From Kofleriaceae bacterium (GTDB taxonomy: Bacteria > Myxococcota_A > Polyangia > Haliangiales > Haliangiaceae), in the NCBI GenBank assembly GCA_046597055.1, contig JBKJLC010000015.1:1-34885 (forward strand): a DNA stretch of 34,885 nt. The letters run 5' to 3'. Below, one piece after another: positions 5,984-34,546 of this stretch. Positions within the stretch are counted from its first letter, which is position 1; each line of letters opens with the position of its first letter. The position numbers and the translations under genes were made by a program. The notes below the pieces were generated by a model, which was not told the origin of the DNA, ran no database searches, and saw only the letters and a list, made by a program, of their open reading frames with translations.

Positions 5984-7384
5984 TCAGTCGAGGGCGGCGA
6001 GGGCGGCGGCGAGGCGATCGACCGGGATGAGCTCGAGGCCGAGGTCGGACTCGAGCCGGGCCCGGTTCTGCGCGGGCAGGATGCAGCGGCGGAAGCCGAG
6101 CTTCTTGGCCTCGGCCAGGCGCAGCTCGGCGAGCTGGACCGCGCGGACCTCGCCGGCGAGCCCGACCTCGCCGAACACGACGGTGTGGGCGTCGATCGCG
6201 CGGCCGCGGTGCGAGGACGCCAGCGCGCACGCGATGCCGAGATCGATCGCGGGCTCGGCCAGGCGGAGGCCGCCGGCGACGTTGACGAAGACGTCCTGGC
6301 CGAGGATGTCGTAGCCGGCGCGCTGGGCGAGGACCGCGAGGAGCAGCGCGACCCGGTTGGCATCGACGCCGGCGACGGTGCGGCGGCCGAAGCCAGCCGT
6401 GGCCGGCGCGACCAGGGCCTGGACCTCGACCAGGAGCGGCCGGTTGCCGTCGGCCGAGGCCACCACCACCGAGCCGGGCGCGCCCTTGGGACGCTCGGCG
6501 AGCAGCAGGGCGGAGGGCTCGGGCACCTCGAGCATGCCGGCGCCGCGCATCTCGAAGACGCCGATCTCCTGGGTCGAGCCGAAGCGGTTCTTGTGGGCGC
6601 GGACCAGGCGGTACGGGCTGCCGCCGTCGCCCTCGACCTGGAGCACCACGTCGACCAGGTGCTCGAGCGTCTTGGGCCCGGCCAGCGAGCCGTCCTTGGT
6701 GACATGGCCGACCACGATGACCGGCACCCCGGTGGTCTTCGCGTAGCGCATCAGGCGCCCAGCACACTCGCGGACCTGACCGACCGAGCCCGGGATCGAG
6801 TCGAGCTCGCTGGTGTAGACGGTCTGGATCGAGTCGACCGCGAGCACGGTCGGCGGGGTCGCGCGCGCGTGGCCGAGGATCACGTCGACGTCGGTCTCGG
6901 CGCACAGCCGCAGGGTCGGCGTGGCCGCGCCGATCCGACGCGCGCGCATCGCGGTCTGCGCGACCGACTCCTCGCCGGTGGCGTAGAGGACGTTGCCACC
7001 GCCGGCGCCGCGATCGCGCTGGGTGATCAGGCCGGCCAGGAGCTGGAGCAGGAGGGTCGACTTGCCGATGCCGGGCTCGCCGCCGAGCAGGACCAGCGCG
7101 CCGGGCACCAGCCCGCCGCCGAGCACGCGATCGAGCTCGGCGATGCCGGTCGCCAGCCGCGAGCGCGCGTCCAGCTCGATGACCTCGGTCGCCGGGACCG
7201 GGGCCGCGCCGTCGGAGACCAGGGCTGACGACACCCGGGGCGGAGCGCCACCCTGGAGCTCCTCGACCAGCGTGCCGAACTCGCTACAGGCGGGGCACTT
7301 GCCGAGCCAGCGGGCCTCGACGTGCCCGCAGCTCTGGCACCGGTGGACCGTGCGCGGCCCCTTGCCCTTCGCCTTGACGGTCAC
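5984..7384 (-). CDS. radA: DNA repair protein RadA/Sms
   Basis: N-terminal C4 zinc finger (CQSCG...WLGKCPAC), Walker A GGEPGIGKST, Walker B VDSIQT, GHVTKDGSLAGPKTLEHLVD, KNRFG signature and C-terminal Lon-like domain (FGEVGLAGEVR). Confidence 0.97.
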   Translation of the reverse strand: MTVKAKGKGPRTVHRCQSCGHVEARWLGKCPACSEFGTLVEELQGGAPPRVSSALVSDGAAPVPATEVIELDARSRLATGIAELDRVLGGGLVPGALVLLGGEPGIGKSTLLLQLLAGLITQRDRGAGGGNVLYATGEESVAQTAMRARRIGAATPTLRLCAETDVDVILGHARATPPTVLAVDSIQTVYTSELDSIPGSVGQVRECAGRLMRYAKTTGVPVIVVGHVTKDGSLAGPKTLEHLVDVVLQVEGDGGSPYRLVRAHKNRFGSTQEIGVFEMRGAGMLEVPEPSALLLAERPKGAPGSVVVASADGNRPLLVEVQALVAPATAGFGRRTVAGVDANRVALLLAVLAQRAGYDILGQDVFVNVAGGLRLAEPAIDLGIACALASSHRGRAIDAHTVVFGEVGLAGEVRAVQLAELRLAEAKKLGFRRCILPAQNRARLESDLGLELIPVDRLAAALAALD

Positions 7385-7399
7385 CGGCGCGGGTCCGGA

Positions 7400-9172
7400 T
7401 CAGAACTCGACGCCGAGCCGGATCTGGAACGTGTGCGCGTTGGAGGCGTCGCCGGTGTTGCCTTCGCCGAACACGGGCTCGGTCGGCGAGCCGTCCTGCA
7501 GCAGGTTGGCCGGGTGGTTCATCGCGCCGAGCGGGAAGAAGCCACCGTAGGCGAGGCCGGCGGTGAAGCCGTTGCCGCGGTACGCGATGTCGGCGTCGAG
7601 CTCGAGGCCCCACAGCGCGTCGTTGCCCGGGGTCGCGATCGGCCGGACCGCCATCGCGGTGACGTTCTGGCCGTGGAACGTGATCGAGTTGGTGAGCTGG
7701 TAGCTCACCCACGGCCGCACGTAGGCGGAGTTGGTGACCGTGCCGAGCAGCTCGCGGAACAGGATCAGGTCGAGCTTGTACTCGGGGTTGAACCGGAACC
7801 GGCGGATGGTGTCCTCGCCCGGGCCGGGCAGGACGCCGAGGTTGCGCACGTGGGTGCGGCCCTGCACCGCCGACTCGGAGGCGTCGCCACTGGCTGCGCC
7901 CACCTCGACGCCGAAGCCGAGCTTGTCCTCGAGCGCCTTGGCCGAGACCCGGGCGATGCCGCCCAAGGTCAGGATGTCGAGCGCGCCGTCGCGGCCGAGC
8001 GGCGCCGCGTTGCCGATCGAGCCGACCTCGACCGCGCCCTCGGCCTCGAGGAGCAGCTTCTTCCAGCCGAGCTTGAGCCAGGTCGACGCGAGGTAGCTCG
8101 CCTGGTCGATCGGCACCGCGGTCGGCGGGTCACCGGCGACCGTGGGGTCGCTGTAGGCCCAGTTGACCGTGGTGCGCTGCACGCGGGCCGCGACGTTGAC
8201 CGCGACGTTGCCGCGGGCGAGCCGGTCGGCGAACTCGGTCGGCGCGTCGATGCGCGCGATCGACACCATCCACTGGTTGATGTCGTCGTTGTCGTCGCGG
8301 TCGTGGTCCTGGCCGGTCGGATAAGCGGTGGTCGAGACCTGACCGCCCCAGTCGAGGGCGGCGGCCGCGCGCAGCGGCGTGCCGGGGATCATCGCGGTGA
8401 ACATCACGCGATCGACGGTCGAGCCTTGGTCGGCGTCGAGGTCGTAGTCGACCGGGTTGTCGCCGCCGATGTTGGCCAGGTTGCCCGGCTGCCACAGCGT
8501 CTCCCAGCTCGCGTAGTCGGTGTTGGCGCGGCGGCCAGAGTTCCAGATCATGCCGAGGCCGAAGTGGTCGGGCATCCGACCGAACTTCAGGTAGCCGAGC
8601 GCGGTCGAGACCTCGGCCCAGGCGCGGTTGGCCTTGATCGTCGGCTCGTCGGGGTTGGCCGCGAGCGAGCCCAGCACGTAGTTGTCGAACACGTCGACCT
8701 GGCTGTGGACGGAGATCGTCTCGCTCAGCTGCATCGTCGGCTCGAGCCGCATCCGCATGTTCGCGGTCTTGATCGAGTCGCTGCAGGGCGCGCCCGCGGT
8801 GGCCTGGGCGCAGTTCGACGGCGGCGGGAACGGCGCGCCGCCGAGGTCGGCCGAATCGTTATGGCCGAGGTGCAGGTTCTTGAACCAGTCGGCACGGGTC
8901 CGCATGTAGCCGTCGATCGAGACGACCTCGAACTTCTTGCGGCGGTCGCGCGGCGGCGGCAGCGTCGGGGTGGTGGTCAGGAGGCCCACCGCCTTGGGGG
9001 CGGCCTCGGCGATCCCCTCCGGCTTGGGCTCCTCCTCACCGGCCCCGCCGGGGCCGCCGGTAGGCATCGGGCTCGGCTGGGCCAGCGCGGTGCCAGTGCC
9101 CGAGACGAAGAGAGCGCCGGAGAGGAGCGCGGCGAGTCCGGATCCGGACGAGGCGAGGTGGCGTGGGTGCAT
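7400..9172 (-). CDS. Outer-membrane beta-barrel protein, myxobacterial TIGR04551-like family
   Basis: Signal peptide ends ALA-Q; motifs GYMRTRADWF, ANMRMRLEP, GYLKFGRMPDHFGLGMIWNSG and FRFNPEYKLDLILFRELLGTVTN; C-terminal FQIRLGVEF beta-signal. The family name is from recollection of these motifs. Confidence 0.75.
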   Translation of the reverse strand: MHPRHLASSGSGLAALLSGALFVSGTGTALAQPSPMPTGGPGGAGEEEPKPEGIAEAAPKAVGLLTTTPTLPPPRDRRKKFEVVSIDGYMRTRADWFKNLHLGHNDSADLGGAPFPPPSNCAQATAGAPCSDSIKTANMRMRLEPTMQLSETISVHSQVDVFDNYVLGSLAANPDEPTIKANRAWAEVSTALGYLKFGRMPDHFGLGMIWNSGRRANTDYASWETLWQPGNLANIGGDNPVDYDLDADQGSTVDRVMFTAMIPGTPLRAAAALDWGGQVSTTAYPTGQDHDRDDNDDINQWMVSIARIDAPTEFADRLARGNVAVNVAARVQRTTVNWAYSDPTVAGDPPTAVPIDQASYLASTWLKLGWKKLLLEAEGAVEVGSIGNAAPLGRDGALDILTLGGIARVSAKALEDKLGFGVEVGAASGDASESAVQGRTHVRNLGVLPGPGEDTIRRFRFNPEYKLDLILFRELLGTVTNSAYVRPWVSYQLTNSITFHGQNVTAMAVRPIATPGNDALWGLELDADIAYRGNGFTAGLAYGGFFPLGAMNHPANLLQDGSPTEPVFGEGNTGDASNAHTFQIRLGVEF

Positions 9173-10965: not shown

Positions 10966-12864
10966 ATGTCCGTCGTACCGACTCGCCTCCGCGCGCCTGC
11001 GCGCCCTGCCTTGCACGTGTCTGCGTTCGGGCTCGCGCTGGCGCTCGCCGGCAGCGCGTGTGGCAGCCAGACCGGCATCATGCTCGAGGTCCACAAGGAC
11101 GACGGCGTGTCGTCCGAGGTCTACGAGCTCAAGGTGTTCGTCGGCGTCGGCCACGACCCCGACCTGTACGACCCGGCCTGGCGCGTGGCTGCGACGCTCG
11201 ACGCCGACGTCGCCCAGGTCATGCTCGACGGCGAGCTGGGCGCGGGCATCTACCGGGTGCTGCTCGAGCCGGGCGCGGCGCTCGCCGGTGATCAGGACCT
11301 GGTGTTCGCGGTCGCCGGCTACAAGACCGGGCAGACCAAGCCGGTGGTGTTCGGCCACGCCGAGCGACCGGTGCAGTTCGCCGATGGCCAGGTCCGCGTG
11401 ATCGATCTGCCGCTGGCGACCTTTCGCGACGCGCGCCACGGCGTGACCGCGACCGGCTGCGCGTGGTGGAACGACGGCGGCGATCGTCGCAAGGACGCCG
11501 CGATCGTGCCGCGCGAGGACGGCGACTGCGACGCGTTCAAGGAGGGCCACGACGAGGCCACCGGCTGTCGGCTCGACTGTGACGACGGTGATCCCGCGGT
11601 GCACCCGGGCGCCACCGAGATCTGCGCCAACGGCGTCGACGAGAACTGCTGCGCCGACAACGACGGCAGCCTCGACCTCGACGCCGATGGCTTCGCGACC
11701 TGCGGCGCCGGCCCGCGCGACTGCGTCGATGGTCCGCGCGGCGGGGTCGGGCTCGCCACCGTGTTCGGCGACAACCTGCCGCCCGAGGCGATCCACCCGG
11801 GCGCGCCCGAGGCGTGCGACGGCGTCGACAACGACTGCGACGCCGCGTGTGACGAGGTCGACAGCTTCGACGGCGACCGCGACGGCTATCTGAACTGCGT
11901 GCGCCAGGACGCCAGCGGGATCCGGACCGCCGGCGTCCACCGGGTCGGGCCGGCCGGGGCGACCTGCGCGCCCAGCGCGCTCGACTGCGCCGACCAGGGC
12001 CGGGTCGGCGCGATCGCGGCCGACGCCATCCACCCGGGCGCCGCCGACAACCAGTGCGACGGCGTCGATCAGGACTGCGACGGCAGCTGTGATCAGCAGC
12101 TGGTCGGGATCGACGGCGACGGCGACGGGTTCGACGTCTGCACCACCGAGGACGGCTACCTGACCGCCGCGATCCCGCAGTGCGCGCGCGGCGTCGGCGA
12201 GGACTGCGGCGGCGACGACTCGCGGTTCGAGTATCCCGGCGGCGCCGAGCGCTGCGACGGGATCGACTTCGACTGCGACCGGGTCTCGTTCCCGGCGCTG
12301 TCGCCGTGCTTCGTGGTCGCGACCGACGGCATGGCCACCCGCTGCGAGGTGGGACGGCGCACCTGCAACGACGTGGCGGGCGCGGTCGATCCCGGCTTCG
12401 GCGCCTGCGTCCACGATCCGCTGGGGCCGGCGATCGCGCTGCCGATGGCGTACTGCCAGGAGGCCTGCGGTCCGACGCTCGATCCGATCCAGTGCCTGTC
12501 GATCGATCGGGTCGACTGCACCGTGCGCTTCCAGGTGGGGGCCGGCGGGGTGCCGAGCCAGGAGGCCTGCGCGACCCCGGTCACCGAGGTGGCGCTGCCG
12601 GCCGACGCCGGCCCCGGCGGCTGCAACTACACGCTGATCGGCGGCCGCGATCAGGGCGACTGGGCGGTGACGCTGGCCAACCCGGTCGGTGTCACCGGCA
12701 CCACCGCGACCGGGTGTGGCTCGACGTTGCGCGTGGTGAGCGCGAGCCCCGACGCCGAGCGGCGCACGGTCCTGGTGGTCAGCGGCCAGGCCCCGCACGT
12801 GTTCCGGCTCGAGCGCCTCGACGGCTGCAGCGACACCGCGAACATGCGCTGCGGCGGGCCCTGA
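10966..12864 (+). CDS. Cys-rich lipoprotein with four putative metal-binding (MopE-like, DC.D...HPGA.E.CDG.D.DCD) repeats
   Basis: Lipobox-like LALAGSA-C; repeats DCDDGDPAVHPGATEICANGVDENCC, IHPGAPEACDGVDNDCD, IHPGAADNQCDGVDQDCD and YPGGAERCDGIDFDCD, interleaved with DxDxDG motifs. Confidence 0.82.
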   Translation: MSVVPTRLRAPARPALHVSAFGLALALAGSACGSQTGIMLEVHKDDGVSSEVYELKVFVGVGHDPDLYDPAWRVAATLDADVAQVMLDGELGAGIYRVLLEPGAALAGDQDLVFAVAGYKTGQTKPVVFGHAERPVQFADGQVRVIDLPLATFRDARHGVTATGCAWWNDGGDRRKDAAIVPREDGDCDAFKEGHDEATGCRLDCDDGDPAVHPGATEICANGVDENCCADNDGSLDLDADGFATCGAGPRDCVDGPRGGVGLATVFGDNLPPEAIHPGAPEACDGVDNDCDAACDEVDSFDGDRDGYLNCVRQDASGIRTAGVHRVGPAGATCAPSALDCADQGRVGAIAADAIHPGAADNQCDGVDQDCDGSCDQQLVGIDGDGDGFDVCTTEDGYLTAAIPQCARGVGEDCGGDDSRFEYPGGAERCDGIDFDCDRVSFPALSPCFVVATDGMATRCEVGRRTCNDVAGAVDPGFGACVHDPLGPAIALPMAYCQEACGPTLDPIQCLSIDRVDCTVRFQVGAGGVPSQEACATPVTEVALPADAGPGGCNYTLIGGRDQGDWAVTLANPVGVTGTTATGCGSTLRVVSASPDAERRTVLVVSGQAPHVFRLERLDGCSDTANMRCGGP

Positions 12865-12867
12865 CGG

Positions 12868-14331
12868 TCAGGCGGCGGCCGGGGCCCGGCGGAGCACGCC
12901 CTTGCCGAGGCGGATGAGCTCGCGCGCGGTCGCGGGCACCAGCACCAAGGCGGACCCGACGTAGACCAGGCCGCCGACGGCCAGCTGGATCGCGAGTGAG
13001 GCGAGGGTGGGGACGCCGAGCGCGGCGAACCCGGCCTCGGTGGCGCGGACCGCGGCGTACATGGGCACGCAGGCCAGCAGGGGCCGGAACACGCCGTCGA
13101 GGTAGCGGACCATCGGCAGCTCGGTGACCCGGCAGGTGACGATGATGGTGGCGACGGTGTGGACGCCGTAGCCGAGGCAGGCCCCGACGCACGCCCACGC
13201 CGGTCCGCCGGCCGCGCCGAGCCCGGCGACCAGCGGCAACACCAGCAGCGCGCGGGCGAAGCTGATCAGCATGATCAGGCGGGTCTGCTGCACCGCCTGC
13301 AGGTAGGCGGTCGACGACCAGGTCATCGGGCGGAACACGGTCATGACGCTGAGGATGGTCAGCAGCGGGGCCATGCCCGACCAGCGCGCGTCGAAGAACG
13401 CGGCGACCACGGTCGGGGCGATCGCGGCCAGCCCGACCCCGAGCGGCGAGACCACCAGCGCCATCATCGCCGCGGCGCGCACCACCGCGGCCCGGCGCTG
13501 GGCATCTTCCATGAGCGAGAACGACGGCATCAGGACCTCGCCGATGTGCTCGGCGACGTGGCTGACCGGCATCTCGGCCAGGCTGTAGGCGAGGTTGTAG
13601 CGCGCCATCACGGCCGGCCCGAACAAGCCCGACACGACCATGCTGTCCCAGCGGGTCGCGGCGCGATCGGCGACCGCGCCGATCATGATCGGCAGGCCAT
13701 AGCCGAACAGGCCGCGCATCACGTCGGCCGAGAGCCGGGCGGGCACCAGCCACGCCGCCCGCGGCGACGACGCGAGGTACAGGGCGGCGGTCATGACCGC
13801 GCGGACCTGCACCGCGATCACGATCGCGTGGGCGCCCCAGGACGGCGCGAGCGCGAGCGCGACCGCGGTGAAGACCAGCTCGCCGGCGCCGTTGATGGTG
13901 GCGATCACCCGGAAGCGCAGGTCGCGCATCAGCAGGCGCTCCGGCACGTAGCGGGCGCGATCGATGATGTGGGCCAGCGCGTACCAGGCGACGAACGGGG
14001 CCATCTCGGGGGTGCCGAGCAGCTCGCCGATCGGGTGCCGCAGCACCACCAGCACGGTCATCGCGATCAGGCCCAGCCCGAGGTGGAGCTGGGCCGCCTG
14101 CGACGCGACCGCGGGCGGCGCCTTGCGCGCGATCAGGTACTGGCCGAAGGCGAAGCTGGTCAGCACCGCGAACGTCGACGTGCTGATCGACGCGGCCAGC
14201 ACCGCGCCATAGTCGGCGGGCGCGATGAATCGGGTGAGGATCAGGGTCGCGACCAGCGTGAGCACGCGCGAGCCGACCCCGAAGACCATGTTCCACGCCA
14301 CCCCGTGGGCGGCCGCGCGGGCGATCGACAC
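12868..14331 (-). CDS. Oligosaccharide flippase, Wzx/WzxC-like (MOP superfamily, PST type)
   Basis: GTG 14331 lies 2 nt after the upstream stop. SIARAAAHGVAWN...ILTRFIAPADYG start, LLMRDLRFRVIA, LFGYGLPI, RWDSMVVSGLFGPAVMARYNLAY and VLMPSFS motifs; about 12-14 hydrophobic segments. Confidence 0.85.
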   Translation of the reverse strand: MSIARAAAHGVAWNMVFGVGSRVLTLVATLILTRFIAPADYGAVLAASISTSTFAVLTSFAFGQYLIARKAPPAVASQAAQLHLGLGLIAMTVLVVLRHPIGELLGTPEMAPFVAWYALAHIIDRARYVPERLLMRDLRFRVIATINGAGELVFTAVALALAPSWGAHAIVIAVQVRAVMTAALYLASSPRAAWLVPARLSADVMRGLFGYGLPIMIGAVADRAATRWDSMVVSGLFGPAVMARYNLAYSLAEMPVSHVAEHIGEVLMPSFSLMEDAQRRAAVVRAAAMMALVVSPLGVGLAAIAPTVVAAFFDARWSGMAPLLTILSVMTVFRPMTWSSTAYLQAVQQTRLIMLISFARALLVLPLVAGLGAAGGPAWACVGACLGYGVHTVATIIVTCRVTELPMVRYLDGVFRPLLACVPMYAAVRATEAGFAALGVPTLASLAIQLAVGGLVYVGSALVLVPATARELIRLGKGVLRRAPAAA

Positions 14332-14333
14332 GG

Positions 14334-15200
14334 TCAGCGCCGGCGATCGATCCACGCGGTGACCAGCTCGAGCAGCGCCGTCTGCGCCGCGAGCTCGGTG
14401 AACGTGTGGTTGGCTGCCGGGAAGTACGCGGGCTCGATGCGACCGCGGAGCTCGGGGAACAGCTCGAACAGCTGACCGGCGTGGTTGTAGCGCTCGCCGA
14501 GCGCGCCCGAGAACACCGCGAGGATCGCCACCCCGCGGTCGACCAGCGCGGTGAGCTGCGCCCGGTACGCGTCGGGAGGTGGCATCTCGCGACCCCCGGT
14601 GACCGGCGGGTCGGTGGCCGGCGCCAGGTCGGGACTCGTCAGCGCGCGCAGCCGCGTCTGCACGCGGTGGACGATCCGACCCGCACCCCAGGTCGCCACC
14701 GCCCGCGCGCCGCCGAGCCCGCGCACGCGCGCCGTCAACCGCCGGGCCCGGGCCCGGCGGGTGCCGTACGTGGGCGGATCGATGACGACCAGCCCGACCA
14801 CGCGCTCGTCGGCGACCGCGGTCGCGAGCGCGTTGTCGGCGCCCGAGCACAGCCCGAACAGCACGAACCGGCGCGCGCCGGTCTCGGCGGCGAGGTGGTC
14901 CATCGCGAGGCGGGTATCGGCGACCGCGCTGTCCCGGAACGACAGCGCGCCCGGCACCGGCCGGCTGTCGCCGACGCCCGACAGGTCGAGGCGCAGCGAG
15001 GTCACCCCGCATCGGGCGAGGCGCCGGGCCAGGTTCACGTGCAGCCGGTGCGGGCCGATCCGGTGGAGCACGCCCGCGTTCAGGATGATCACGGTGGGTG
15101 GCGCCAGCGGGGCCGGGTCGACGGTGGTGCGCACGTCGGGGCCGGCGAGCATGCCGACCAGGTGGCCCTCGAGCCCCAGCTGCAGCGGAGACTCCCGCAC
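14334..15200 (-). CDS. Alpha/beta-hydrolase-fold protein with Cys nucleophile elbow (similar to exosortase-A-associated hydrolase 1 type)
   Basis: ILNAGVLHRIGPHRLHVNLARRLA, LRLDLSGVGDS, elbow GLCSGA and C-terminal ANHTF His. Alternative in-frame starts at 15242 and 15251. Confidence 0.82.
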   Translation of the reverse strand: MRESPLQLGLEGHLVGMLAGPDVRTTVDPAPLAPPTVIILNAGVLHRIGPHRLHVNLARRLARCGVTSLRLDLSGVGDSRPVPGALSFRDSAVADTRLAMDHLAAETGARRFVLFGLCSGADNALATAVADERVVGLVVIDPPTYGTRRARARRLTARVRGLGGARAVATWGAGRIVHRVQTRLRALTSPDLAPATDPPVTGGREMPPPDAYRAQLTALVDRGVAILAVFSGALGERYNHAGQLFELFPELRGRIEPAYFPAANHTFTELAAQTALLELVTAWIDRRR

Positions 15201-15241
15201 CGCGGGAGCACCGATCGTGGGCACGACGTGCCCGGTGCGCA

Positions 15242-15290
15242 TTGCTGGCATCGGCGCCCGGACAGTAAACTGAAAAGCACTCCGTTGAAA
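15242..15290. promoter_or_regulatory. Putative bidirectional promoter of the NRPS-PKS locus
   Basis: Short AT-rich island between the divergent hydrolase genes. Plus strand TTGCTG-N18-TAAACT (15242-15271); minus strand TACTGT (15267-15262). The two -10-like hexamers overlap the small inverted repeat CAGT-AA-ACTG. Confidence 0.35.
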
Positions 15291-16075
15291 ATGTTCCACT
15301 TCGGACCGAGCGGGCGGCGGTTGCTGGGGTCGCTGCACGTGCCGCAGCGCTTGCGACCGCGCAGCGCGGCCATCCTCCTGTGCAATCCTTTTGGCGAGGA
15401 GGCGGCGCGCGCCCATCGCATCTACCGAGTGCTCGCGACGCAGCTCGAGCGCCGTGGCTATGCCGTGCTGCGCTTCGACTACGGGAGCACCGGCGACTCG
15501 ATGGGCGACGGCGACGAGGCCTCGGTCGCGGACTGGCTGGCGGACGTCGAGCTCGCGGCCCGCGAGCTGACCACCGCGAGCGGCGCCCGCAAGCTGGTCG
15601 CGGTCGGGCTCCGCCTCGGCGCCACCCTGGCCGCGCTGGCCACGTCGCGCGGCGGGCTGCGGCTGCGCCACCTGGTGATGTGGGATCCGGTGGTCGGGGG
15701 CGCCGGGTACCTGCGCGAGCTGGCGACGATGCACCGCAGCTACCTGCAGCACGAGCTGGGCGCCCCGGTGCTGGCGTCTGCGAGCGGGGTGCCGACCGAG
15801 GCGCTGGGCACGCCGATCAGCCGCGCGCTCGCCGCCGAGCTCACCGCGATCGACCTCGCGGGCGAGCCGGTGCGCACGGACCACGTGACCGTCATCAGCA
15901 CGCGCGATCCGGCGGCCATCGCCCCGCTGCGCGAGGGCTGGGGCGGGTCGCCGTCGGCGCGCTGGATCGAGCTGCCGGCCAGCGCGGCGTGGAACACCGA
16001 CGCCGCGCTCAACGCCTCGGTCGTGCCCATGGACGTCGTGCAGGCAATGCTGGAACGGATCGAGGAGCTGAGCCC

Positions 16076-16079
<4 letters not shown>
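15291..16079 (+). CDS. Alpha/beta-hydrolase-fold protein lacking the nucleophile (similar to exosortase-A-associated hydrolase 2 type)
   Basis: [35 protein letters not shown], elbow GLRLGA and [10 protein letters not shown]. The stop overlaps the NRPS start (ATGA). TTG 15285 is an alternative start. Confidence 0.85.
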
Positions 16080-29034
<12,955 letters not shown>

Positions 29035-29038
<4 letters not shown>

Positions 29039-30546
29039 CCCCACGCCGCTGGGCGCTCGCGGCGGCGGCGACGATCCTGGTGTGGTGCGGCCTCGAGCTC
29101 GGGCTGCGCCGATCGACGTCGATCACCGACGACTGGATGGGATGGCGGCAGGCCGACACCCAGGCGATCGCGCGCAACCTGGCGTTCGAGGAGCTCGATC
29201 CGCTGCGCCCACGCATCGACTGGCGCGGCGATGGCCCCGGCTACGTCGAGACCGAGCTGCAGGTCTATCCAACGCTGATCGCGCTCGCGATGCGGGCCAC
29301 CGGCGAGAGCCTGTGGCCCGGTCAGCTGATCTCGCTGGGGTGCGTCGCGCTCGCCGCGGCGATCCTGTTCGCGGCCCTGGCCCGGCGCTTCGGCGACCGT
29401 GCCGCCTACCTGGCCGTCCTCGCCATGCTGACCGGGCAGGGCGTGGTGGTGGCGGGCACCTCGATCCAGCCCGATCCGCTCGCGCTCCTGCTGTTCACGA
29501 TCGGCTTCGTCGGGTTCGCGGCCTACCTCGAGACGCCGAGCCGCGGTCGGCTGCTGATGTGGGTCGCCGCCACCGCCCTCGCCGGGCTGGTCAAGCCGAC
29601 CACGCTCGAGCTCGGCATCGCCCAGGGTGTGCTGGTGGTCCTGGCCCACCGCGGCGCGCTGCGCCGGCCGGCGCTGTGGCTCGGCTGGGCGGCGGTGCTG
29701 ATCGTCGTCGGCGGGTTTCTCCTGCACGCGCGCGGCCTGTACCTCGCATACGGCAACACCTTCGGCGTGCTCAGCGGCGGCGACAGCAAGCTGCCCGCGC
29801 TCGCCGCGATCGCGCGACCGCAGCCGTGGATCGATCTGGTCCGCTTCGCGGTGATCTGGGGCGTCGGGCTCCCGGCGGTTCCGGCCGCGCTGGTCCTGGC
29901 CTGGCGTCGCCGGCTCGGCGCCGAGGAGGCCGCGCTCGCGGCCGGCGCGCTGGTGCTGTCGCTGCTGGCGCTGCGCTACACCTCGGGACCCTTCGGCACC
30001 CACTACCACCTGCCGCACGTCGTGCTGGGCGCGTGGCTGGTCGCCCGCGCCACCGCGGAGCTGGATCGCGCGACCACCGCGCGGCCGGTGCGCATGCGTG
30101 CTGTGGTCGTGATCGCGGCGGTCGCCGCGCTGCTCCTGTACGCGCGCGCCATCGCCTATGTCCGCGCCCTGCCGCCCGAGCCGGAGACCACCGTCGGTCG
30201 CCTGCTGGCTGGGGCTGCCGCCCCCGGCACGCTGGTCGCGGTCCGGGCGCGCGCGCCGCGCCACGATCCGCAGTGGCACACGGTGAACAACTGCGAGGAT
30301 CCCCGGGTGTTCTATCTGTCCCGCACCCACGGCTGGGTGCTTGCCAACGACGAGCCCGGCGCCGCCCGGCTCGCCGAGCTGGCCGCGCGCGGCGCCCGCT
30401 TCTACGCCCACGTCGAGCAGATGGCGCCCGACCCGGCGCTGGCCGGCTGGCTGGCCGCGCACGCTGACCTGGTCGCCCGCGCGCCCGCCGGCGCGGTCTA
30501 TCGGCTGCGCGCGTCGGCGTCGTCGGGGTCGTCGCGCACGAAGTAG
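29035..30546 (+). CDS. Polytopic membrane glycosyltransferase, GT-C fold (ArnT/PMT_2, 'family 39'-like)
   Basis: GTGA overlap with the NRPS stop. First TM is followed by the loop [12 protein letters not shown]...LRPRIDW.G...ETELQVYP; then [14 protein letters not shown] and HYHLP motifs; about 11-13 TM segments and a small C-terminal soluble domain. Confidence 0.78.
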
Positions 30547-31334
30547 AAGCCGCTGTAGGCCTCGATGTCGCGGCCACGCGTGAAGGGGATCGTGCACGAA
30601 CACTCGCGATCGGCCCAGTCGTCGACCATGCGATAGCCAAGGTCGGTCACGCTCGTCACCAGCCCGGCGCGGTTGTCGATGCGGTACGGGTGGAACGCGC
30701 GGCCGGTCGACTGCACGGTCACGAACGACTCGCCGTCGTACACGGGCATCTTGTTGAGGATGACGTGGCGTGGCCGCGAGCCAATCCGGGCCAGGATCGA
30801 CGGCAGCGGCTCGTCGACGTACTGGAGCGCGCCGGCCGAAAAGAAGACATCGCAGCCGCGGGCGTCGGCGACCTCGGTCGTGAACGCGAGACCTGGGCTG
30901 TCGCGCTCGGCGGCGAGCTCGGCGCCGACCTTGATGATCGCCGCCACGTCCTGGACCAGCCAGCGCGTACCCGGCGGGTAGCCGAGGTAGCGCCGCCAGC
31001 CGTGGTAGCTCACCCCGACGTGGCCGCCAAAGTCGAACACGAACGACCCCGGCGCGAGGATCCCGCGCAGCCAGAACAGCACGCTGTAATCGCTCTGGTT
31101 GGCCTTCTCCATGCGGTGGCGGTAGAGGCCGGCCAGCTCGGCGTGATCGTAGCCGACCCGCGCACCCGCCGGGATCGACCGCTCGGCCTCGGCGAAGCTG
31201 GCGTAGACGCCGCGAAAGCGGTTGGGCGCCCGCCGCGCGAACGTCCGCTCGTAGTCGAGGGCCAGCACCTGGCCGACCCCCGGGATCCGCCAGGCGTTGC
31301 GGGCGATGCGCTTGCTGACGTCGATGAGCCCCAC
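30498..31334 (-). CDS. Putative SAM-dependent methyltransferase, TIGR04325-like
   Basis: FRGVYASFAEA, SAM motif VFDFGGHVGVSY, WLVQDV, FSAGALQYV and FVTVQ...HPYRI. Start uncertain (GTG 31334 or 31379). Confidence 0.78.
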   Translation of the reverse strand: MGLIDVSKRIARNAWRIPGVGQVLALDYERTFARRAPNRFRGVYASFAEAERSIPAGARVGYDHAELAGLYRHRMEKANQSDYSVLFWLRGILAPGSFVFDFGGHVGVSYHGWRRYLGYPPGTRWLVQDVAAIIKVGAELAAERDSPGLAFTTEVADARGCDVFFSAGALQYVDEPLPSILARIGSRPRHVILNKMPVYDGESFVTVQSTGRAFHPYRIDNRAGLVTSVTDLGYRMVDDWADRECSCTIPFTRGRDIEAYSGFYFVRDDPDDADARSR

Positions 31335-31456
31335 GGACGCCGATGGTAGTCCGGTATCCGCCGCCGGTGCCGCATCCACCGCGACGCGCCCGCCTTTGAT
31401 CCGCCGCCCGCCACTGCCATGCCGATCTTCACCGCCGGCTCGCGTTAGGCTGCGGC

Positions 31457-32596
31457 ATGGAGCGCGCATCGCTTGCCGACGACGTCGGCCAGGTCCTCTG
31501 GTACGGATTCCACGGCACCACCGCGTCGGCCCCGCTGCTGGCGGCGATCGGCCGGGGCGAGGTCGGCGCGGTCGTGCTGTTCAAGCGCAACCTCGTCATC
31601 CAGGTCGTCGACGGGGGCGCCGCGGTGCCGCAAGAGGTGGTCGACCTGGACCGGCTGGTCGCGCTCAACCACGCCCTGCACGCGGCGGCCCCGCCGGCGA
31701 GCCCGCTGCTGATCGCGGTCGATCAGGAGGGCGGCGCGGTGCAGCGCGTGCGCGCGCCCGGCACCCAGTGGCCCCCGATGCTCACGCTCGATGGCCACCC
31801 GGCTCCGACCGACGAGCTGCTGGCCCGCGAGGTCGGGCGTGCGCTCGGGCGCGAGCTGGCCGCGCTCGGGTTCGACATCGACTTTGCCCCGGTGCTCGAC
31901 GTGCACACGAATCCGGCCAACCCGATCATCGGCGATCGCGCGTTCGGCACCGAGCCCGAGACGGTGGCGCGGCGCGCGCTGGCGCTGGCGGCCGGGCTCG
32001 CCGACGCTGGCGTGCTCGCGTGCGGCAAGCACTTTCCCGGTCACGGCGACACCGCGACCGACAGTCACCTCGAGCTGCCGCGGCTCGATCACGCCTGGGA
32101 CCGGCTCGACGCGATCGAGCTGGTCCCGTTCCGGCGCGCGGCCGAGGCGGGCCTGCCGATGATCATGACCGCGCACGTCATCTTCGCCGCGCTCGACCCC
32201 GACCAGCCAGCGACGCTGTCGGCCCGGGTCATCCACGAAGTGCTGCGTCAGCGGCTCGGCTATCGCGGCGTGATCGTGTCCGACGATCTCGACATGCGCG
32301 CGATCGCCGATCACCACGGCGTCGGCGACGCGGCGGTGCGCGCGCTCCGCGCCGGCTGCGATGCGCTGCTGCTGTGTCGCGACGAGGCCCACCAGGCCGA
32401 GGCCCGGGCCGCGCTGCTGCACGCCGGCGCCGGCGACGCCGACCTGCGCGCGCGGCTGGCCGAGGCGGCGGCCCGGGTCCGCGCGATGAAGGCTGCCCAT
32501 GCCGCGGCCCGCGCGACCCGACCGCCCGACAGCGTCGACGTGGTCGGCTGCCCCGCGCATCGCGAGCTGGCCGACCGGCTGGCCGGTCGGACCTGA
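31457..32596 (+). CDS. nagZ: Beta-N-acetylhexosaminidase (GH3)
   Basis: AVDQEGGAVQR, FAPVLDV, IGDRAFG, NagZ signature KHFPGHGDTATDSH, MTAHV and nucleophile region SDDLDM; no signal peptide. Confidence 0.93.
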   Translation: MERASLADDVGQVLWYGFHGTTASAPLLAAIGRGEVGAVVLFKRNLVIQVVDGGAAVPQEVVDLDRLVALNHALHAAAPPASPLLIAVDQEGGAVQRVRAPGTQWPPMLTLDGHPAPTDELLAREVGRALGRELAALGFDIDFAPVLDVHTNPANPIIGDRAFGTEPETVARRALALAAGLADAGVLACGKHFPGHGDTATDSHLELPRLDHAWDRLDAIELVPFRRAAEAGLPMIMTAHVIFAALDPDQPATLSARVIHEVLRQRLGYRGVIVSDDLDMRAIADHHGVGDAAVRALRAGCDALLLCRDEAHQAEARAALLHAGAGDADLRARLAEAAARVRAMKAAHAAARATRPPDSVDVVGCPAHRELADRLAGRT

Positions 32597-32722
32597 AGAG
32601 GTGGCGAGGCTTTGATCGACACCTCTCGCGCCAGCGCGGCGAGCGCGCCACGCGATCGGCTCGCCCGACATGCCGCCGGCGGCCTGAGGATGAGGCCGGT
32701 CCATGGGTATGCTCGGGCCACC

Positions 32723-34546
32723 ATGCGATCCCGCCACCTGATAGCCGTCGTCGCGCTCGTCACCACCAGCGCAGGCTGTGGCGATGACATCGGGCCGCCA
32801 CCGTCACCTCCGCCGGGCGCGCTGATCGCGGTCTCCATGGCGACCGAGGTCGGCGTGCTCCTCGACGAGCTGCCGCCCGCGGCACGCGACCGGTTGGCCG
32901 CCGATCTGCTGGCCCGCCCCGCGGCGTTCTGGGTCGCGCGCGCCGAGCGGCAGGTCTCGACCGCGCTGTACCGGCTGGTCTATCGCAACCTGTTCGACGA
33001 GACGCTCGGCCAGCTGCCGCTGCCGCCGGTCGAGCAGTGGGACCTCGAGGTCGCCGCGGCCCAGCGCAAGATCATCGATGGCCACGACCTGGTGGTCGCG
33101 CCCTACACGTTCTCGAGCACGCTGCTGACGCCGACCGAGGAGCCCGAGCTCGCCGACCCGATCCTGGCGACGATCGGCGGCGTGGTCGAGGAGGTGTTCG
33201 TGCTGCCGGTCGATCCCGAGCACTTGCTCGAGCGCACCGGCTACGCCTGCATGGACGAGGCGGACTTCCCGCCCGGCAGCGTCGACACCGAGAACGCGCC
33301 GGCCTTCTACGACGACAGCTGCGAGCCCGGCGTGTCGGCTGACGGCTGCCACCTCACCGCGCCGATCCCGTCGGTGTCGTGCGTCGACGCGCTGGCGGCC
33401 TCGGTCGGTCGCGCCGACGCCACCTTCCGGTTCGAGCGGGTCGAGTTCGACCGCGCGCGGGCGGATGCGGTCCGGGTCGGACGCGCGCGCACCGGCGGGC
33501 CGCAGCTGGCCGCGGTCGAGGCGGGCGTGCGCGACCACCGCATCGTCTACCGCTACTTCGAGCCGAGCTCGTGTGCGATCGCGGAGGGCTGCGTGGGCGG
33601 AGCGGGCTGGCGCCGGCTGCTGCAGTTCACCGCGACGATGGAGAACCTCGGCGACGAGGACATGGTGCTCGGCGAGGTCGGGGCCGGCAGCCCGGCGGTC
33701 CGCAACTACCTGGTCTCGTACAGCGCTTGCCACGAGCACATGCACTTCAACCACTACGGCAACTTCAGCTTCGGAGATGACGCGGCGCTCGGCTCGAAGC
33801 GGGCGTTCTGCCTCGAGAGCACGTCGCGCTACTCCAACAACGAGACGACGCCGCTGGTGCACCCGTACAGCTGCCACTTTCAGGGCACCGCGCGTGGCTG
33901 GGGCGACGACTACATCGCCGGGCTCGACTGCCAGTGGATCGACATCACCACGGTCGACTCGACCACGCCGGTCACCGCGCCGCTCGGCTTCGAGGTCAAC
34001 CCCGACGCCTTCCTGTGCGAGGGCGCGCTGATCACCGACGACCGCGGCGAGCCGCTGTTCGAGCCGACCGCGTTCACCAACGAGGACGACATGATCGAGA
34101 ACCGGTTCCAGTGCGAGGCGTTCGCGGATGCCGCGGCCGACAACCTGGTGACCGCCGACGTGACCGTGCCAGTGCCCGGCCGCGGCCTGGTGACCGAGCC
34201 GTGCGGGCGCTTCCAGGTCGGTACCACCCGCAACTGCGGCTTCGCGCCGACCGGCCCGGTGGTCACGTGCCTGCCCGGCGCCGAGGTCACGCTCCGCTGC
34301 GTCGGCGGCTCCGAGGCGGTCCCGGCCGCGGTGCGGGTGTGCGAGGCGAGCCACGCCCTTGGCGCGATCCCGTGTCTCTACAACGATGCCCGGGTCCAGG
34401 TGACCCAGCGCGGGGTCGCGCAGGACGTCACGTTCACCTGTCCGGCCGCGCGCTCGGCGATCGAGCTGGGCGGACGCGCCGGCGTCTACCTCAGCCCGCT
34501 GGTCGGGGGTGACGACGTCAGCAGCGTGCGCTGCGCGGTCCGCTAG
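32723..34546 (+). CDS. Lipoprotein with a lysyl oxidase (LOX)-like catalytic domain
   Basis: Lipobox TSAG-C after MRSRHLIAVVALV; LOX motifs CAIAEGC, RRLLQF...NLG, YSACHEHMHF, KRAFCLES, GWGDDYIAGLDCQWIDITTV and EVNPD; Cys-rich C-terminal domain. Confidence 0.85.
   Translation: MRSRHLIAVVALVTTSAGCGDDIGPPPSPPPGALIAVSMATEVGVLLDELPPAARDRLAADLLARPAAFWVARAERQVSTALYRLVYRNLFDETLGQLPLPPVEQWDLEVAAAQRKIIDGHDLVVAPYTFSSTLLTPTEEPELADPILATIGGVVEEVFVLPVDPEHLLERTGYACMDEADFPPGSVDTENAPAFYDDSCEPGVSADGCHLTAPIPSVSCVDALAASVGRADATFRFERVEFDRARADAVRVGRARTGGPQLAAVEAGVRDHRIVYRYFEPSSCAIAEGCVGGAGWRRLLQFTATMENLGDEDMVLGEVGAGSPAVRNYLVSYSACHEHMHFNHYGNFSFGDDAALGSKRAFCLESTSRYSNNETTPLVHPYSCHFQGTARGWGDDYIAGLDCQWIDITTVDSTTPVTAPLGFEVNPDAFLCEGALITDDRGEPLFEPTAFTNEDDMIENRFQCEAFADAAADNLVTADVTVPVPGRGLVTEPCGRFQVGTTRNCGFAPTGPVVTCLPGAEVTLRCVGGSEAVPAAVRVCEASHALGAIPCLYNDARVQVTQRGVAQDVTFTCPAARSAIELGGRAGVYLSPLVGGDDVSSVRCAVR

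Follow-up and report, generated by a model that had tools for sequence, protein, structure and literature searches.

What becomes of a peptide whose assembly line has no domain to release it, and whose genes lie beside those for a flippase and an envelope glycosyltransferase? The question is raised by contig JBKJLC010000015.1 of a soil myxobacterium (Kofleriaceae bacterium, assembly GCA_046597055.1; about 74% G+C), the whole 34,885 nt of which are the window analyzed here. Six of its genes encode a flippase-like protein (wzx), two α/β-hydrolase-fold paralogues (hyd1 and hyd2), a hybrid nonribosomal peptide synthetase–polyketide synthase (NRPS-PKS), a membrane glycosyltransferase of the GT-C type and a methyltransferase (Table 1). 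In the reading that we favor, a peptide with a β-amino acid is made by an NRPS-PKS that has no thioesterase (TE), passes through a Cys/Arg heterodimer formed by the two hydrolase-like proteins to a lipid-linked sugar, and reaches the envelope by way of Wzx and the ArnT-like GT-C; we give this complete route about an even chance. The claim at its center, that the product is grafted onto a lipid-linked cell-surface sugar and not set free, we hold with equal weight for and against. What makes grafting likely is that the megasynthase lacks a release domain and that its gene is linked to those for the hydrolase pair, the GT-C, the methyltransferase and often Wzx. The chemical steps, namely transfer to the lipid-linked sugar, flipping and attachment to lipopolysaccharide (LPS), exopolysaccharide (EPS) or protein, are suggested by gene association and by knowledge of the families. 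Our literature search found no paper that describes this architecture, so that the term "undescribed," applied to it in an earlier, sequence-only reading, holds as far as the literature was searched.

Gene calls in the window were based on codon-position G+C and translation, and family scans covered 14 open reading frames (ORFs) with Pfam and 12 with NCBIfam. The six genes, their strands and their close junctions are all present, as that reading had described them, when read directly from the sequence. The GTG start of wzx (14329–14331) and the TGA stop of hyd1 (14334–14336) are 2 nt apart. The hyd2 and megasynthase genes share an ATGA overlap (16076–16079), the megasynthase and GT-C genes a GTGA overlap (29035–29038), and the GT-C and methyltransferase genes overlap tail to tail by 49 nt. 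Among the ORFs scanned there is no ABC or MFS exporter, no Wzy and no GT-A or GT-B glycosyltransferase, which bears out the claim that the window holds no exporter of these kinds, no polymerase and no soluble glycosyltransferase. The same scans found no GT2 protein, the family to which GtrB and ArnC belong, and with Pfam no transferase of the MBOAT/DltD or LpxL type. When the genome was searched with a GT2 protein from a related locus (L168; L and G numbers are our labels for loci and genomes), matches were weak, at 54 bits or less, and the query is itself TuaG-like.

Table 1. Positions of the cluster features in the window, with domain residues of the megasynthase
Feature	Positions or residues	Strand	Description
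wzx	12868–14331	−	487 aa, GTG start; MOP/PST-family flippase-like membrane protein
hyd1	14334–15254	−	α/β hydrolase, Pfam Hydrolase_4; Cys in nucleophile elbow (G-L-C136-S-G), His283
hyd1/hyd2 spacer	15255–15290		36 nt, divergent, between both start codons (read from sequence)
hyd2	15291–16079	+	α/β-fold paralogue, Pfam Hydrolase_4; Arg108 at nucleophile position (G-L-R-L-G)
Hybrid NRPS-PKS megasynthase	16076–29038	+	4320 aa; Pfam domains and motif scan
Megasynthase domains, first part	A1 13–~510; T1 Ser549; KS 606–981; AT 1133–1421; T2 Ser1561; AMT 1781–2081		A, adenylation; T, carrier; KS, ketosynthase; AT, acyltransferase; AMT, aminotransferase
Megasynthase domains, second part	C1 2193–2639; A2; T3 Ser3189; C2; A3; T4 Ser4245		C, condensation
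Terminal carrier T4 and tail	28718–29038	+	End of assembly line; Pro/Arg-rich tail of ~40 aa
GT-C membrane glycosyltransferase	29035–30546	+	503 aa; PMT_2; GTGA-coupled to megasynthase
TIGR04325-family methyltransferase	30498–31469	−	S-adenosylmethionine (SAM)-dependent; convergent with GT-C; start codon uncertain

By Pfam, the megasynthase contains three AMP-binding, four PP-binding and two Condensation domains together with a KS, an AT and an Aminotran_3 domain, in the order A-T-KS-AT-T-AMT-C-A-T-C-A-T. The line ends in a bare carrier. After the final PP-binding domain come about 40 residues of low complexity, and no Thioesterase or NAD_binding_4 (reductase) family was found in the protein at E ≤ 0.001; the earlier description of the enzyme as TE-less was therefore correct. 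A motif scan shows intact cores throughout: TACSTS, HGTAT and GNVGH in the KS, GHSVG and HAFH in the AT, four carrier serines within [LF]Gx[DH]S[LI], and the cores of the A domains. The LGGHSL motif of T4 begins at residue 4241, and two HHxxxDG motifs are visible in the translation. The enzyme is thus a type I hybrid, in which the NRPS domains (A, T, C) and the KS-AT-T module keep their core motifs, and the class-III aminotransferase (Aminotran_3, residues 1781–2081) that stands in line between T2 and C1 fits a β-amino module of the MycA/iturin type. In mycosubtilin and iturin synthesis the MycA module has the order acyl ligase-acyl carrier protein (ACP)-KS-ACP-AMT-C-A-T. Our enzyme follows the same logic: loading is succeeded by a PKS extension, then by a class-III aminotransferase in line, and a condensation domain leads on into NRPS modules. 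It probably differs in its starter domain, which bears the FDxS aspartate and the C-terminal lysine of A domains for amino acids and so would not be a fatty-acyl ligase. It also has an integrated AT, only two further modules, no TE or macrocyclization, and glycan-type neighbors.

The likely substrates can be suggested only in outline. A1 carries FDAS and the lysine of GK[LIV]DR, and we take this combination of FDxS aspartate and C-terminal lysine to denote activation of an α-amino acid. From the Stachelhaus positions, read by eye and given low weight, we presume a Val-like pocket for A1 (D-A-L-W-F-G-G-T-F-K). With the same low weight and by the same positions, we take the A2 pocket to be D-I-S-D-I-T-G-V-W-K, which we leave unassigned; that of A3 (D-I-L-Q-L-G-M-V-W-K) is presumably a Gly pocket, identical at 8 of 10 positions to the Gly code DILQLGLIWK, again with low weight. 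All 12 domain pieces are kept in each of the six same-genus loci that we fetched. The tail behind T4 is mostly not conserved, since in four of these six loci at most residues 1–74 of the 111-aa T4 piece align; in the other two the alignment reaches residue 105–107. More distant orthologues in the genus have an N-terminal extension of 185 aa before A1 (L012:4331-4885 (-), genome G015), which starts at the hyd2 stop and by eye resembles the tail of a condensation domain; the megasynthase of the window has no such extension and starts directly at A1. The orthologues of G005 and G016 (L015/L016 and L017/L018) hold about 3 kb more between C2 and A3. This is consistent with one more C-A-T module, and chain length therefore varies within the genus.

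What takes the place of a release domain may be the hydrolase pair. The best NCBIfam matches of hyd1 and hyd2 are TIGR03100 (hydr1_PEP; 80.3 bits, below the cut-off of 168.45) and TIGR03101 (hydr2_PEP; 87.2 bits, below the cut-off of 202.75). No protein in the genome matches either family above its cut-off, and hyd1 and hyd2 are the sole matches of this kind there. The two families are named as hydrolases 1 and 2 of exosortase A systems and go with an acyl-CoA ligase (TIGR03098) and an ACP. Our pair is like them in that each protein best matches its own member and that the paralogues lie together beside an adenylating enzyme and a carrier protein; it is unlike them in scoring far below the cut-offs and in having a megasynthase as partner in place of a stand-alone ligase and ACP. 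The locus is also not an exosortase A/PEP-CTERM locus: the genome has a single Exosortase_EpsH match (47 bits), which lies on a different contig. The main text of the 2006 PEP-CTERM paper contains none of the terms "hydrolase," "acyl carrier," "acyl-CoA" and "decarboxylase."

The residues at the two nucleophile positions set the partners apart. Cys136 and His283 of hyd1 are invariant in seven of seven sequences from the genus and in six of six distant ones, taken from pairs in Pseudomonadota metagenome-assembled genomes (MAGs) at 20–36% identity; Arg108 of hyd2 is invariant in the same numbers of each (7/7 and 6/6). The seven sequences of the genus also preserve the elbow motifs around these residues, G-L-C-S-G in hyd1 and G-L-R-L-G in hyd2. 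In profile alignments to PDB entry 9pjb, Cys136 of hyd1 falls on the serine of G-L-S-M-G and Arg108 of hyd2 on the catalytic serine. Three runs of structure prediction for the complex gave an interface score (ipSAE, interaction prediction score from aligned errors) of 0.92, whereas the best of three controls scored 0.00. The predicted local distance difference test (pLDDT) values of the partners were at least 89, and the runs shared at least 85% of their contacts. When the predictor was calibrated, 116 of 157 solved complexes attained this mark, as did 2 of 215 mismatched pairs. The predicted interface is formed by residues 61–70 and 280–291 of hyd1 and residues 35–46, 67–69 and 148–175 of hyd2; it takes in residues 282–283 of hyd1, beside the invariant His. 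These predictions support a hyd1/hyd2 heterodimer, in which, we infer, hyd1 would be the catalytic Cys/His subunit that forms a thioester intermediate and hyd2 a dead partner, the two acting on a chain bound to a carrier.

The genomic company of the pair fits such a role. It lies beside an adenylating enzyme and a carrier protein in the window, in the six same-genus loci, in L100, L102 and L103, and in 11 of 12 further loci, and it recurs in fused form in L101. In L100, L103 and L184 the pair comes directly after the last C-A-T, which is the position of a TE, with hyd2 before hyd1 in L100 and L103; upstream in L103 the order is KS-AT-T-AMT, an ORF of 289 aa and then C-A-T. In L102 the order is asparagine synthase, ACP, TIGR03098-like ligase, an NAD-synthase-like gene, hyd2 and hyd1. 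In L101, a single 608-aa protein (L101:10017-11843 (+)) fuses hyd2, N-terminal, to hyd1, C-terminal, with 103.5 bits for TIGR03101 and 127.9 bits for TIGR03100. This fusion adjoins a GH2-like protein, and no carrier-protein gene was seen in the annotated part of that locus. L102:108-6963 and L046:11537-16838 share an asparagine-synthase-like amidotransferase, an NAD-synthase-like protein and an AMP-ligase, with an ACP in L102; the set stands with hyd2-hyd1 in L102 and with a GT-C homologue and an A-T-TE protein in L046. It may be a smaller relative of the system.

The membrane protein encoded behind the megasynthase matches Pfam PMT_2 above cut-off (41.3 bits against 26.1), and no NCBIfam family at E ≤ 0.01. 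An AlphaFold2 model (pLDDT 88.2; predicted template modeling score, pTM, 0.90) was compared with known structures by Foldseek: ArnT came first (5f15/5ezm; E 4e-8, template modeling score, TM, 0.62), then ALG12, PglB and OST, and all 33 matches with E ≤ 0.001 among the matches listed were GT-C enzymes, with ArnT at their head. The modeled structure thus has the GT-C fold. At the sequence level the protein is not an ArnT orthologue, with 15% identity to ArnT in the structural alignment, and a profile search of the PDB gave no sequence relative at E ≤ 0.001 and, up to E 1, a single unrelated chain (E 0.071). In 12 of 12 GT-C sequences, down to 39% identity, the ITDDWxGWRQADT loop and the KPT, GGDSK and HYH motifs are invariant, as are D33 and D41, which lie in the loop right after the first helix. 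An orthologue was found in 11 of 16 genomes of the genus and in none of the 24 other relatives searched. The last gene of the cluster encodes a TIGR04325 methyltransferase (192.6 bits, above the cut-off of 80), the domain spanning residues 85–311 of the longest ORF. Its true start is uncertain because this ORF overlaps the start of a GH3 gene. That neighbor, at 31457–32596 (+), encodes a NagZ-like β-N-acetylhexosaminidase (NF003740, 238 bits, above cut-off) and begins inside the longest methyltransferase ORF. The methyltransferase is present in all six fetched same-genus loci and in 17 of the 22 closest GT-C loci, and the family also occurs beside GT-C and NRPS genes in L053, L027 and L049.

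GT-C enzymes work on the outer face of the membrane and use lipid-linked donors. This admits a different division of roles, in which the peptide would serve as acceptor. After release and export, or while held in the membrane by an anchor, it would be glycosylated by the GT-C from a polyprenyl-phosphate sugar to give a glycopeptide. The tight coupling of NRPS and GT-C by the GTGA overlap and their linkage across phyla agree with this, as do the outer-face action known for the family and the finding of no cytoplasmic glycosyltransferase among the window ORFs scanned. Against it, no GT-C is known to glycosylate a small diffusible metabolite, and it leaves unexplained both the transfer-type Cys/Arg pair and the CE4, GlmS, Wzy, GT4 and Bac_transf neighbors of relatives. 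We consider a glycopeptide unlikely.

How firmly are these genes tied to one another? The hyd1, hyd2, GT-C and methyltransferase genes and the 12 megasynthase pieces are all present in six of six fetched same-genus loci. A scan of species genomes with a GT-C alignment returned 62 loci, 22 of them close (at least 55% identity). NRPS/PKS pieces lie beside the GT-C in 20 of the 22 close loci; in the other two the contig reaches less than 200 nt upstream. Of the remaining 40 loci, nine have such pieces, Ignavibacteriaceae and Pseudomonadota MAGs among them. Gene order changes with distance. L051 (Ignavibacteriaceae) encodes KS-AT-T-AMT-C, then A-T-TE, a TylF-type methyltransferase, the GT-C, a GNAT protein, an ATP-grasp protein and a GT2; L059 (a Pseudomonadota MAG) has the GT-C, then A-MT-T (MT, methyltransferase domain) and KS-AT-T-AMT; and L053 has AT-T-AMT, then C-A-T-C-A-T, the GT-C and a TIGR04325 methyltransferase, with an ABC transporter nearby. 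Glycan genes accompany others: the set is flanked by GT4, Wzy_C and GT4 in L027, wzx, GT4, sugar dehydrogenase/epimerase genes and GlmS are found in L049, and GlmS was detected by tblastn in three close loci (L033, L035, L037). GT-C homologues also occur in NRPS-free polysaccharide loci (L055, L062, L060). The GT2 genes near relatives L168 and L051 score as chain-building enzymes of the TuaG/EpsD kind and not as ArnC. In L056 and L058, from Polyangiaceae-type MAGs, orphan GT-C homologues (43–44% identity) adjoin an 813-aa fusion of a beta-lactamase-family domain with NamZ, an exo-β-N-acetylmuramidase (L056:11488-13929, L058:11487-13928 (-)), which hints at a peptidoglycan link for that GT-C branch.

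The hydrolase pair was followed through an even sample of 301 Myxococcota genomes, in which the hyd2 type occurs in 21, the GT-C type in 9 and both in 5. The two are on one contig in three of these five genomes, from one family, and on separate contigs in two, from one genus. NRPS/PKS genes adjoin hyd2 in 11 of the 12 further Myxococcota loci, and seven of the 12 have Wzx, GT-C, Bac_transf or GT2/GT4 genes within 20 kb. Thus L184 and L195 have a different PMT_2 GT-C right after hyd1 (L195 also an STT3-like protein), L186 and L188 have Wzx, GT4 and GT2, L187 has Wzx, L189 a Wzx-like fragment and L193 Bac_transf. Downstream of NRPS-hyd2-hyd1 in the Pseudomonadota MAG locus L100 (L100:5334-10894) lie genes for a phosphopantetheinyl transferase (PPTase), two short-chain dehydrogenases/reductases (SDRs), a FAD_binding_4 protein and a UbiA-family prenyltransferase. 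We take the UbiA/FAD_binding_4/SDR set to resemble genes for polyprenyl-phosphoribose synthase and epimerase, which make the polyprenyl-phosphate pentofuranose donors of GT-C enzymes.

Because the linkage is found again in several phyla, with the genes in changing order, neither chance nor a purely local rearrangement explains it. An account by coincidence would have the glycan-type genes as separate units that happen to be adjacent, and the megasynthase served by an unlinked release enzyme. The variable presence of wzx speaks for this, and the flanks do hold unrelated genes, for a MopE-repeat protein, the GH3 enzyme and a lysyl-oxidase-like protein. The start/stop overlaps that join the cluster genes and the persistence of the linkage across many lineages and gene orders make coincidence very improbable, and we disfavor it.

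Wzx is the most variable member of the set. The protein exceeds two Pfam cut-offs (Polysacc_synt_3, 132.6 bits against 23; Polysacc_synt, 67.4 against 28.2); its best NCBIfam match, the MOP flippase family NF007773, stays below cut-off (119.9 bits against 273). The five same-genus genomes without a linked wzx have only paralogues elsewhere, at 34–35% identity. From the genus alone we had regarded wzx as a lineage-specific add-on (two of seven loci), a view that was dropped when metagenome loci showed it beside hyd1 in 28 of 50. A metagenome scan with a hyd2 alignment gave 80 loci, of which 50 were assessable (divergent hyd1 and hyd2 with at least 400 nt beyond hyd1); the 30 left out comprised 24 with too little flank, 5 without a hyd1 match and 1 with an odd arrangement. 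In the assessable loci the next gene after hyd1 was a wzx orthologue in 28 (51–75% identity), a CE4 gene in 4, and another or none detected in 18, so that wzx is the commonest; these counts are not independent, because some contigs are near-duplicates. Ten of the 18 others were inspected: a PPTase gene lies beside hyd1 in four, and one locus has GT2, Acyl_transf_3 and a NodS-like methyltransferase. The sequence-only reading had expected homologous megasynthases to have wzx and GT-C neighbors. For the GT-C this stands, in the close loci and into distant phyla; for wzx it stands in the metagenome majority and fails in five of the seven same-genus loci.

Among the five fetched same-genus loci without wzx, a CE4 polysaccharide deacetylase gene follows hyd1 in two, and GlmS lies near the methyltransferase in one. 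The best NCBIfam matches of the CE4 neighbors, all below cut-off, are sporulation-type (PdaB, PdaA) and peptidoglycan-GlcNAc deacetylases and NodB. The CE4 protein after hyd1 in G015 has a 58% identical match at G000:C293:29666-30307, on another contig of the window's own genome, where the cluster-linked gene may have moved rather than been lost. Matches of this sort bring peptidoglycan into view as the target: the chain would be placed on an amine of lipid II or a muropeptide, the MOP protein would flip it as MurJ does, and the GT-C would add or relocate a wall sugar. The membership of the flippase in the MOP family, the kinds of deacetylase that the CE4 neighbors match, the NagZ-like gene that adjoins the methyltransferase gene in the window and the NamZ/beta-lactamase fusions beside the orphan homologues in L056 and L058 all agree with this. 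Set against them, the GH3 gene is not kept beside the cluster in the six same-genus loci, Pfam favors Polysacc_synt_3 over MurJ, and relatives hold genes of the EPS/O-antigen type (Wzy_C, GT4, Bac_transf) and not wall-synthesis genes. A wall target therefore seems to us quite improbable.

Several findings weigh against grafting itself. Pfam and NCBIfam scans of the window ORFs showed no Wzy, no gene for sugar nucleotides and no sugar transferase of the initiating or polyprenyl-phosphate type. In the genus, wzx is linked in only two of seven loci (the window and one of the six fetched), and a wzx orthologue is missing after hyd1 in 22 of the 50 assessable metagenome loci. The pair is more widespread than the GT-C, 16 of the 21 hyd2-bearing Myxococcota genomes having no GT-C of this type, and 5 of the 12 further hyd2 loci have no glycan genes within 20 kb. 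In favor of grafting, on the other hand, there are relatives found inside Wzx/Wzy/GT4/GT2 loci. Seven GT-C homologues (37–44% identity) have no NRPS and no glycan genes in their surroundings, and relatives L051 and L046 end in A-T-TE. Finally, L053 has a carrier-ended line with GT-C and methyltransferase, and no hyd2-type gene was found in its genome, of unknown completeness, at E ≤ 1e-8.

A diffusible product stays a serious rival for these reasons: the window has no initiating or polyprenyl-phosphate sugar transferase, wzx is often missing, the pair is commoner than the GT-C, and there are the TE-bearing relatives and L053. On this account the cluster is an ordinary secondary-metabolite cluster, in which the pair is a trans-acting TE that frees a probably cationic peptide, the MOP protein exports it, and the GT-C protects the producer's own envelope or is unrelated. 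NRPS-PKS clusters do normally make diffusible products, the MOP protein could serve as exporter where no other was found among the window ORFs scanned, a TE is present in L051 and L046 and an ABC transporter lies near L053, and most hyd2-bearing genomes are without this GT-C. Self-protection has a precedent, too: in Dickeya oryzae, the Arn LPS system is reported to give protection against zeamine, a polyamine antibiotic that the organism makes itself (PMC10632790). Other observations fit this account poorly. The flippase-like protein scores as PST/Wzx (Polysacc_synt_3) and not as MATE; a GT-C alone, without donor-synthesis genes, would be an incomplete means of self-protection; translational coupling joins the GT-C to the synthetase, and their linkage persists across phyla; relatives are surrounded by genes for GT4, Wzy, Bac_transf, CE4 and GlmS; and a Cys nucleophile with a dead partner would be unusual for a purely hydrolytic TE. 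On balance we judge free release rather unlikely, a possibility of real weight all the same.

The grafting route that we favor would proceed as follows. A1 would load an α-amino acid, the KS and AT would extend it with malonate, and the in-line AMT would turn the 3-keto group into an amine. The resulting 3,4-diamino-acyl unit would be extended by two residues through C1/A2 and C2/A3, the last of them probably Gly. Cys136 of hyd1, in its complex with a hyd2 that would be catalytically dead, would take over the peptidyl thioester from T4. On the cytoplasmic face the chain would next go to a sugar linked to polyprenyl phosphate and be joined there to an amine or a hydroxyl. The CE4 deacetylase that relatives encode beside hyd1 would supply the free sugar amine, as ArnD does in the Arn pathway. 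Wzx would flip the loaded carrier, and the GT-C would move the decorated sugar to an acceptor, for which LPS, EPS, peptidoglycan and protein are candidates. The TIGR04325 enzyme would methylate some position of the product. A more far-reaching version holds that this is one pathway in several phyla, in which a cationic diamino-acyl peptide is never released but joined by the Cys/Arg pseudo-dimer to an amino sugar on undecaprenyl, flipped by Wzx and installed on the envelope by the ArnT-like GT-C; we put this forward tentatively, with the weight somewhat on the other side.

As a gene set, the cluster is best classed with two known kinds of system: carrier-dependent envelope decoration, and modification by GT-C and flippase. 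The Arn pathway of lipid A modification consists of ArnC, ArnD, ArnE/F and ArnT, with ArnD a deformylase of the CE4 family. Our system would be like it in that the GT-C acts on a polyprenyl-phosphate-linked amino sugar after flipping, that a CE4-family enzyme occurs in clusters of relatives and that the predicted substituent would be cationic. It is unlike it in the low identity of the GT-C to ArnT, in having no ArnA-, ArnB- or ArnC-like genes in the window and a Wzx-type flippase in place of ArnE/F, and in the NRPS-PKS and hydrolase pair, which have no Arn counterpart. Dlt performs D-alanylation of teichoic acids, and AlmEFG adds glycine to lipid A of Vibrio cholerae; both move single amino acids, by MBOAT/DltD or an LpxL-type acyltransferase. 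There too, a carrier protein is charged by an adenylating enzyme, and its acyl group goes to an envelope polymer and is not released. The window differs in showing none of those acyltransferase families among its scanned ORFs, and in its multimodular NRPS-PKS product, its Cys/Arg α/β-hydrolase pair and its GT-C.

A further analogy, for the last steps, is with Gtr-type three-component systems, in which flippase and GT-C act together and the substituent is added on the outer face. The NRPS and hydrolase pair of L100, beside UbiA, FAD_binding_4 and SDR genes, may resemble them as well. The differences are that no polyprenyl-phosphate glycosyltransferase was found in the window, that the flippase is Wzx and not a small GtrA-type protein, and that the sugar added would itself carry a peptide from an assembly line. 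One paper describes three-component glycan modification by GT-C enzymes in polyprenyl-phosphate pentofuranose systems (PMC11127046).

If the grafting reading is right, it may be relevant in several ways. First, it would be the first covalent decoration of a bacterial surface glycan made by an assembly line. Megasynthases would then also supply covalent substituents for cell-surface glycans, and the idea behind Dlt, Alm and Arn would extend from single residues to peptides. Second, a Cys-nucleophile α/β hydrolase with an Arg-bearing dead paralogue would be a new release device for many "TE-less" clusters that genome miners cannot interpret, and would explain why products of such clusters are absent from culture extracts. 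Third, it would offer a testable handle on the remodeling of envelope charge in soil Myxococcota that are not in culture and, by way of the related loci, in Ignavibacteriaceae and Pseudomonadota. Should the product prove diffusible, the cluster would still belong to an uncharacterized family of biosynthetic gene clusters, present in several phyla and marked by the hydrolase pair with its conserved GT-C and methyltransferase partners.

The remaining genes of the window are of other kinds. On the left flank, a 632-aa protein (10966–12864, +) has four MopE-type putative metal-binding repeats, and on the right a 644-aa protein (32612–34546, +) has a lysyl-oxidase domain; neither is kept beside the cluster in relatives. 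Farther to the left, 5984–9172 (−) encodes a RadA-like protein (AAA_25, zinc ribbon, Lon_C/ChlI) and then a protein of the TIGR04551 family (345 bits, above cut-off).

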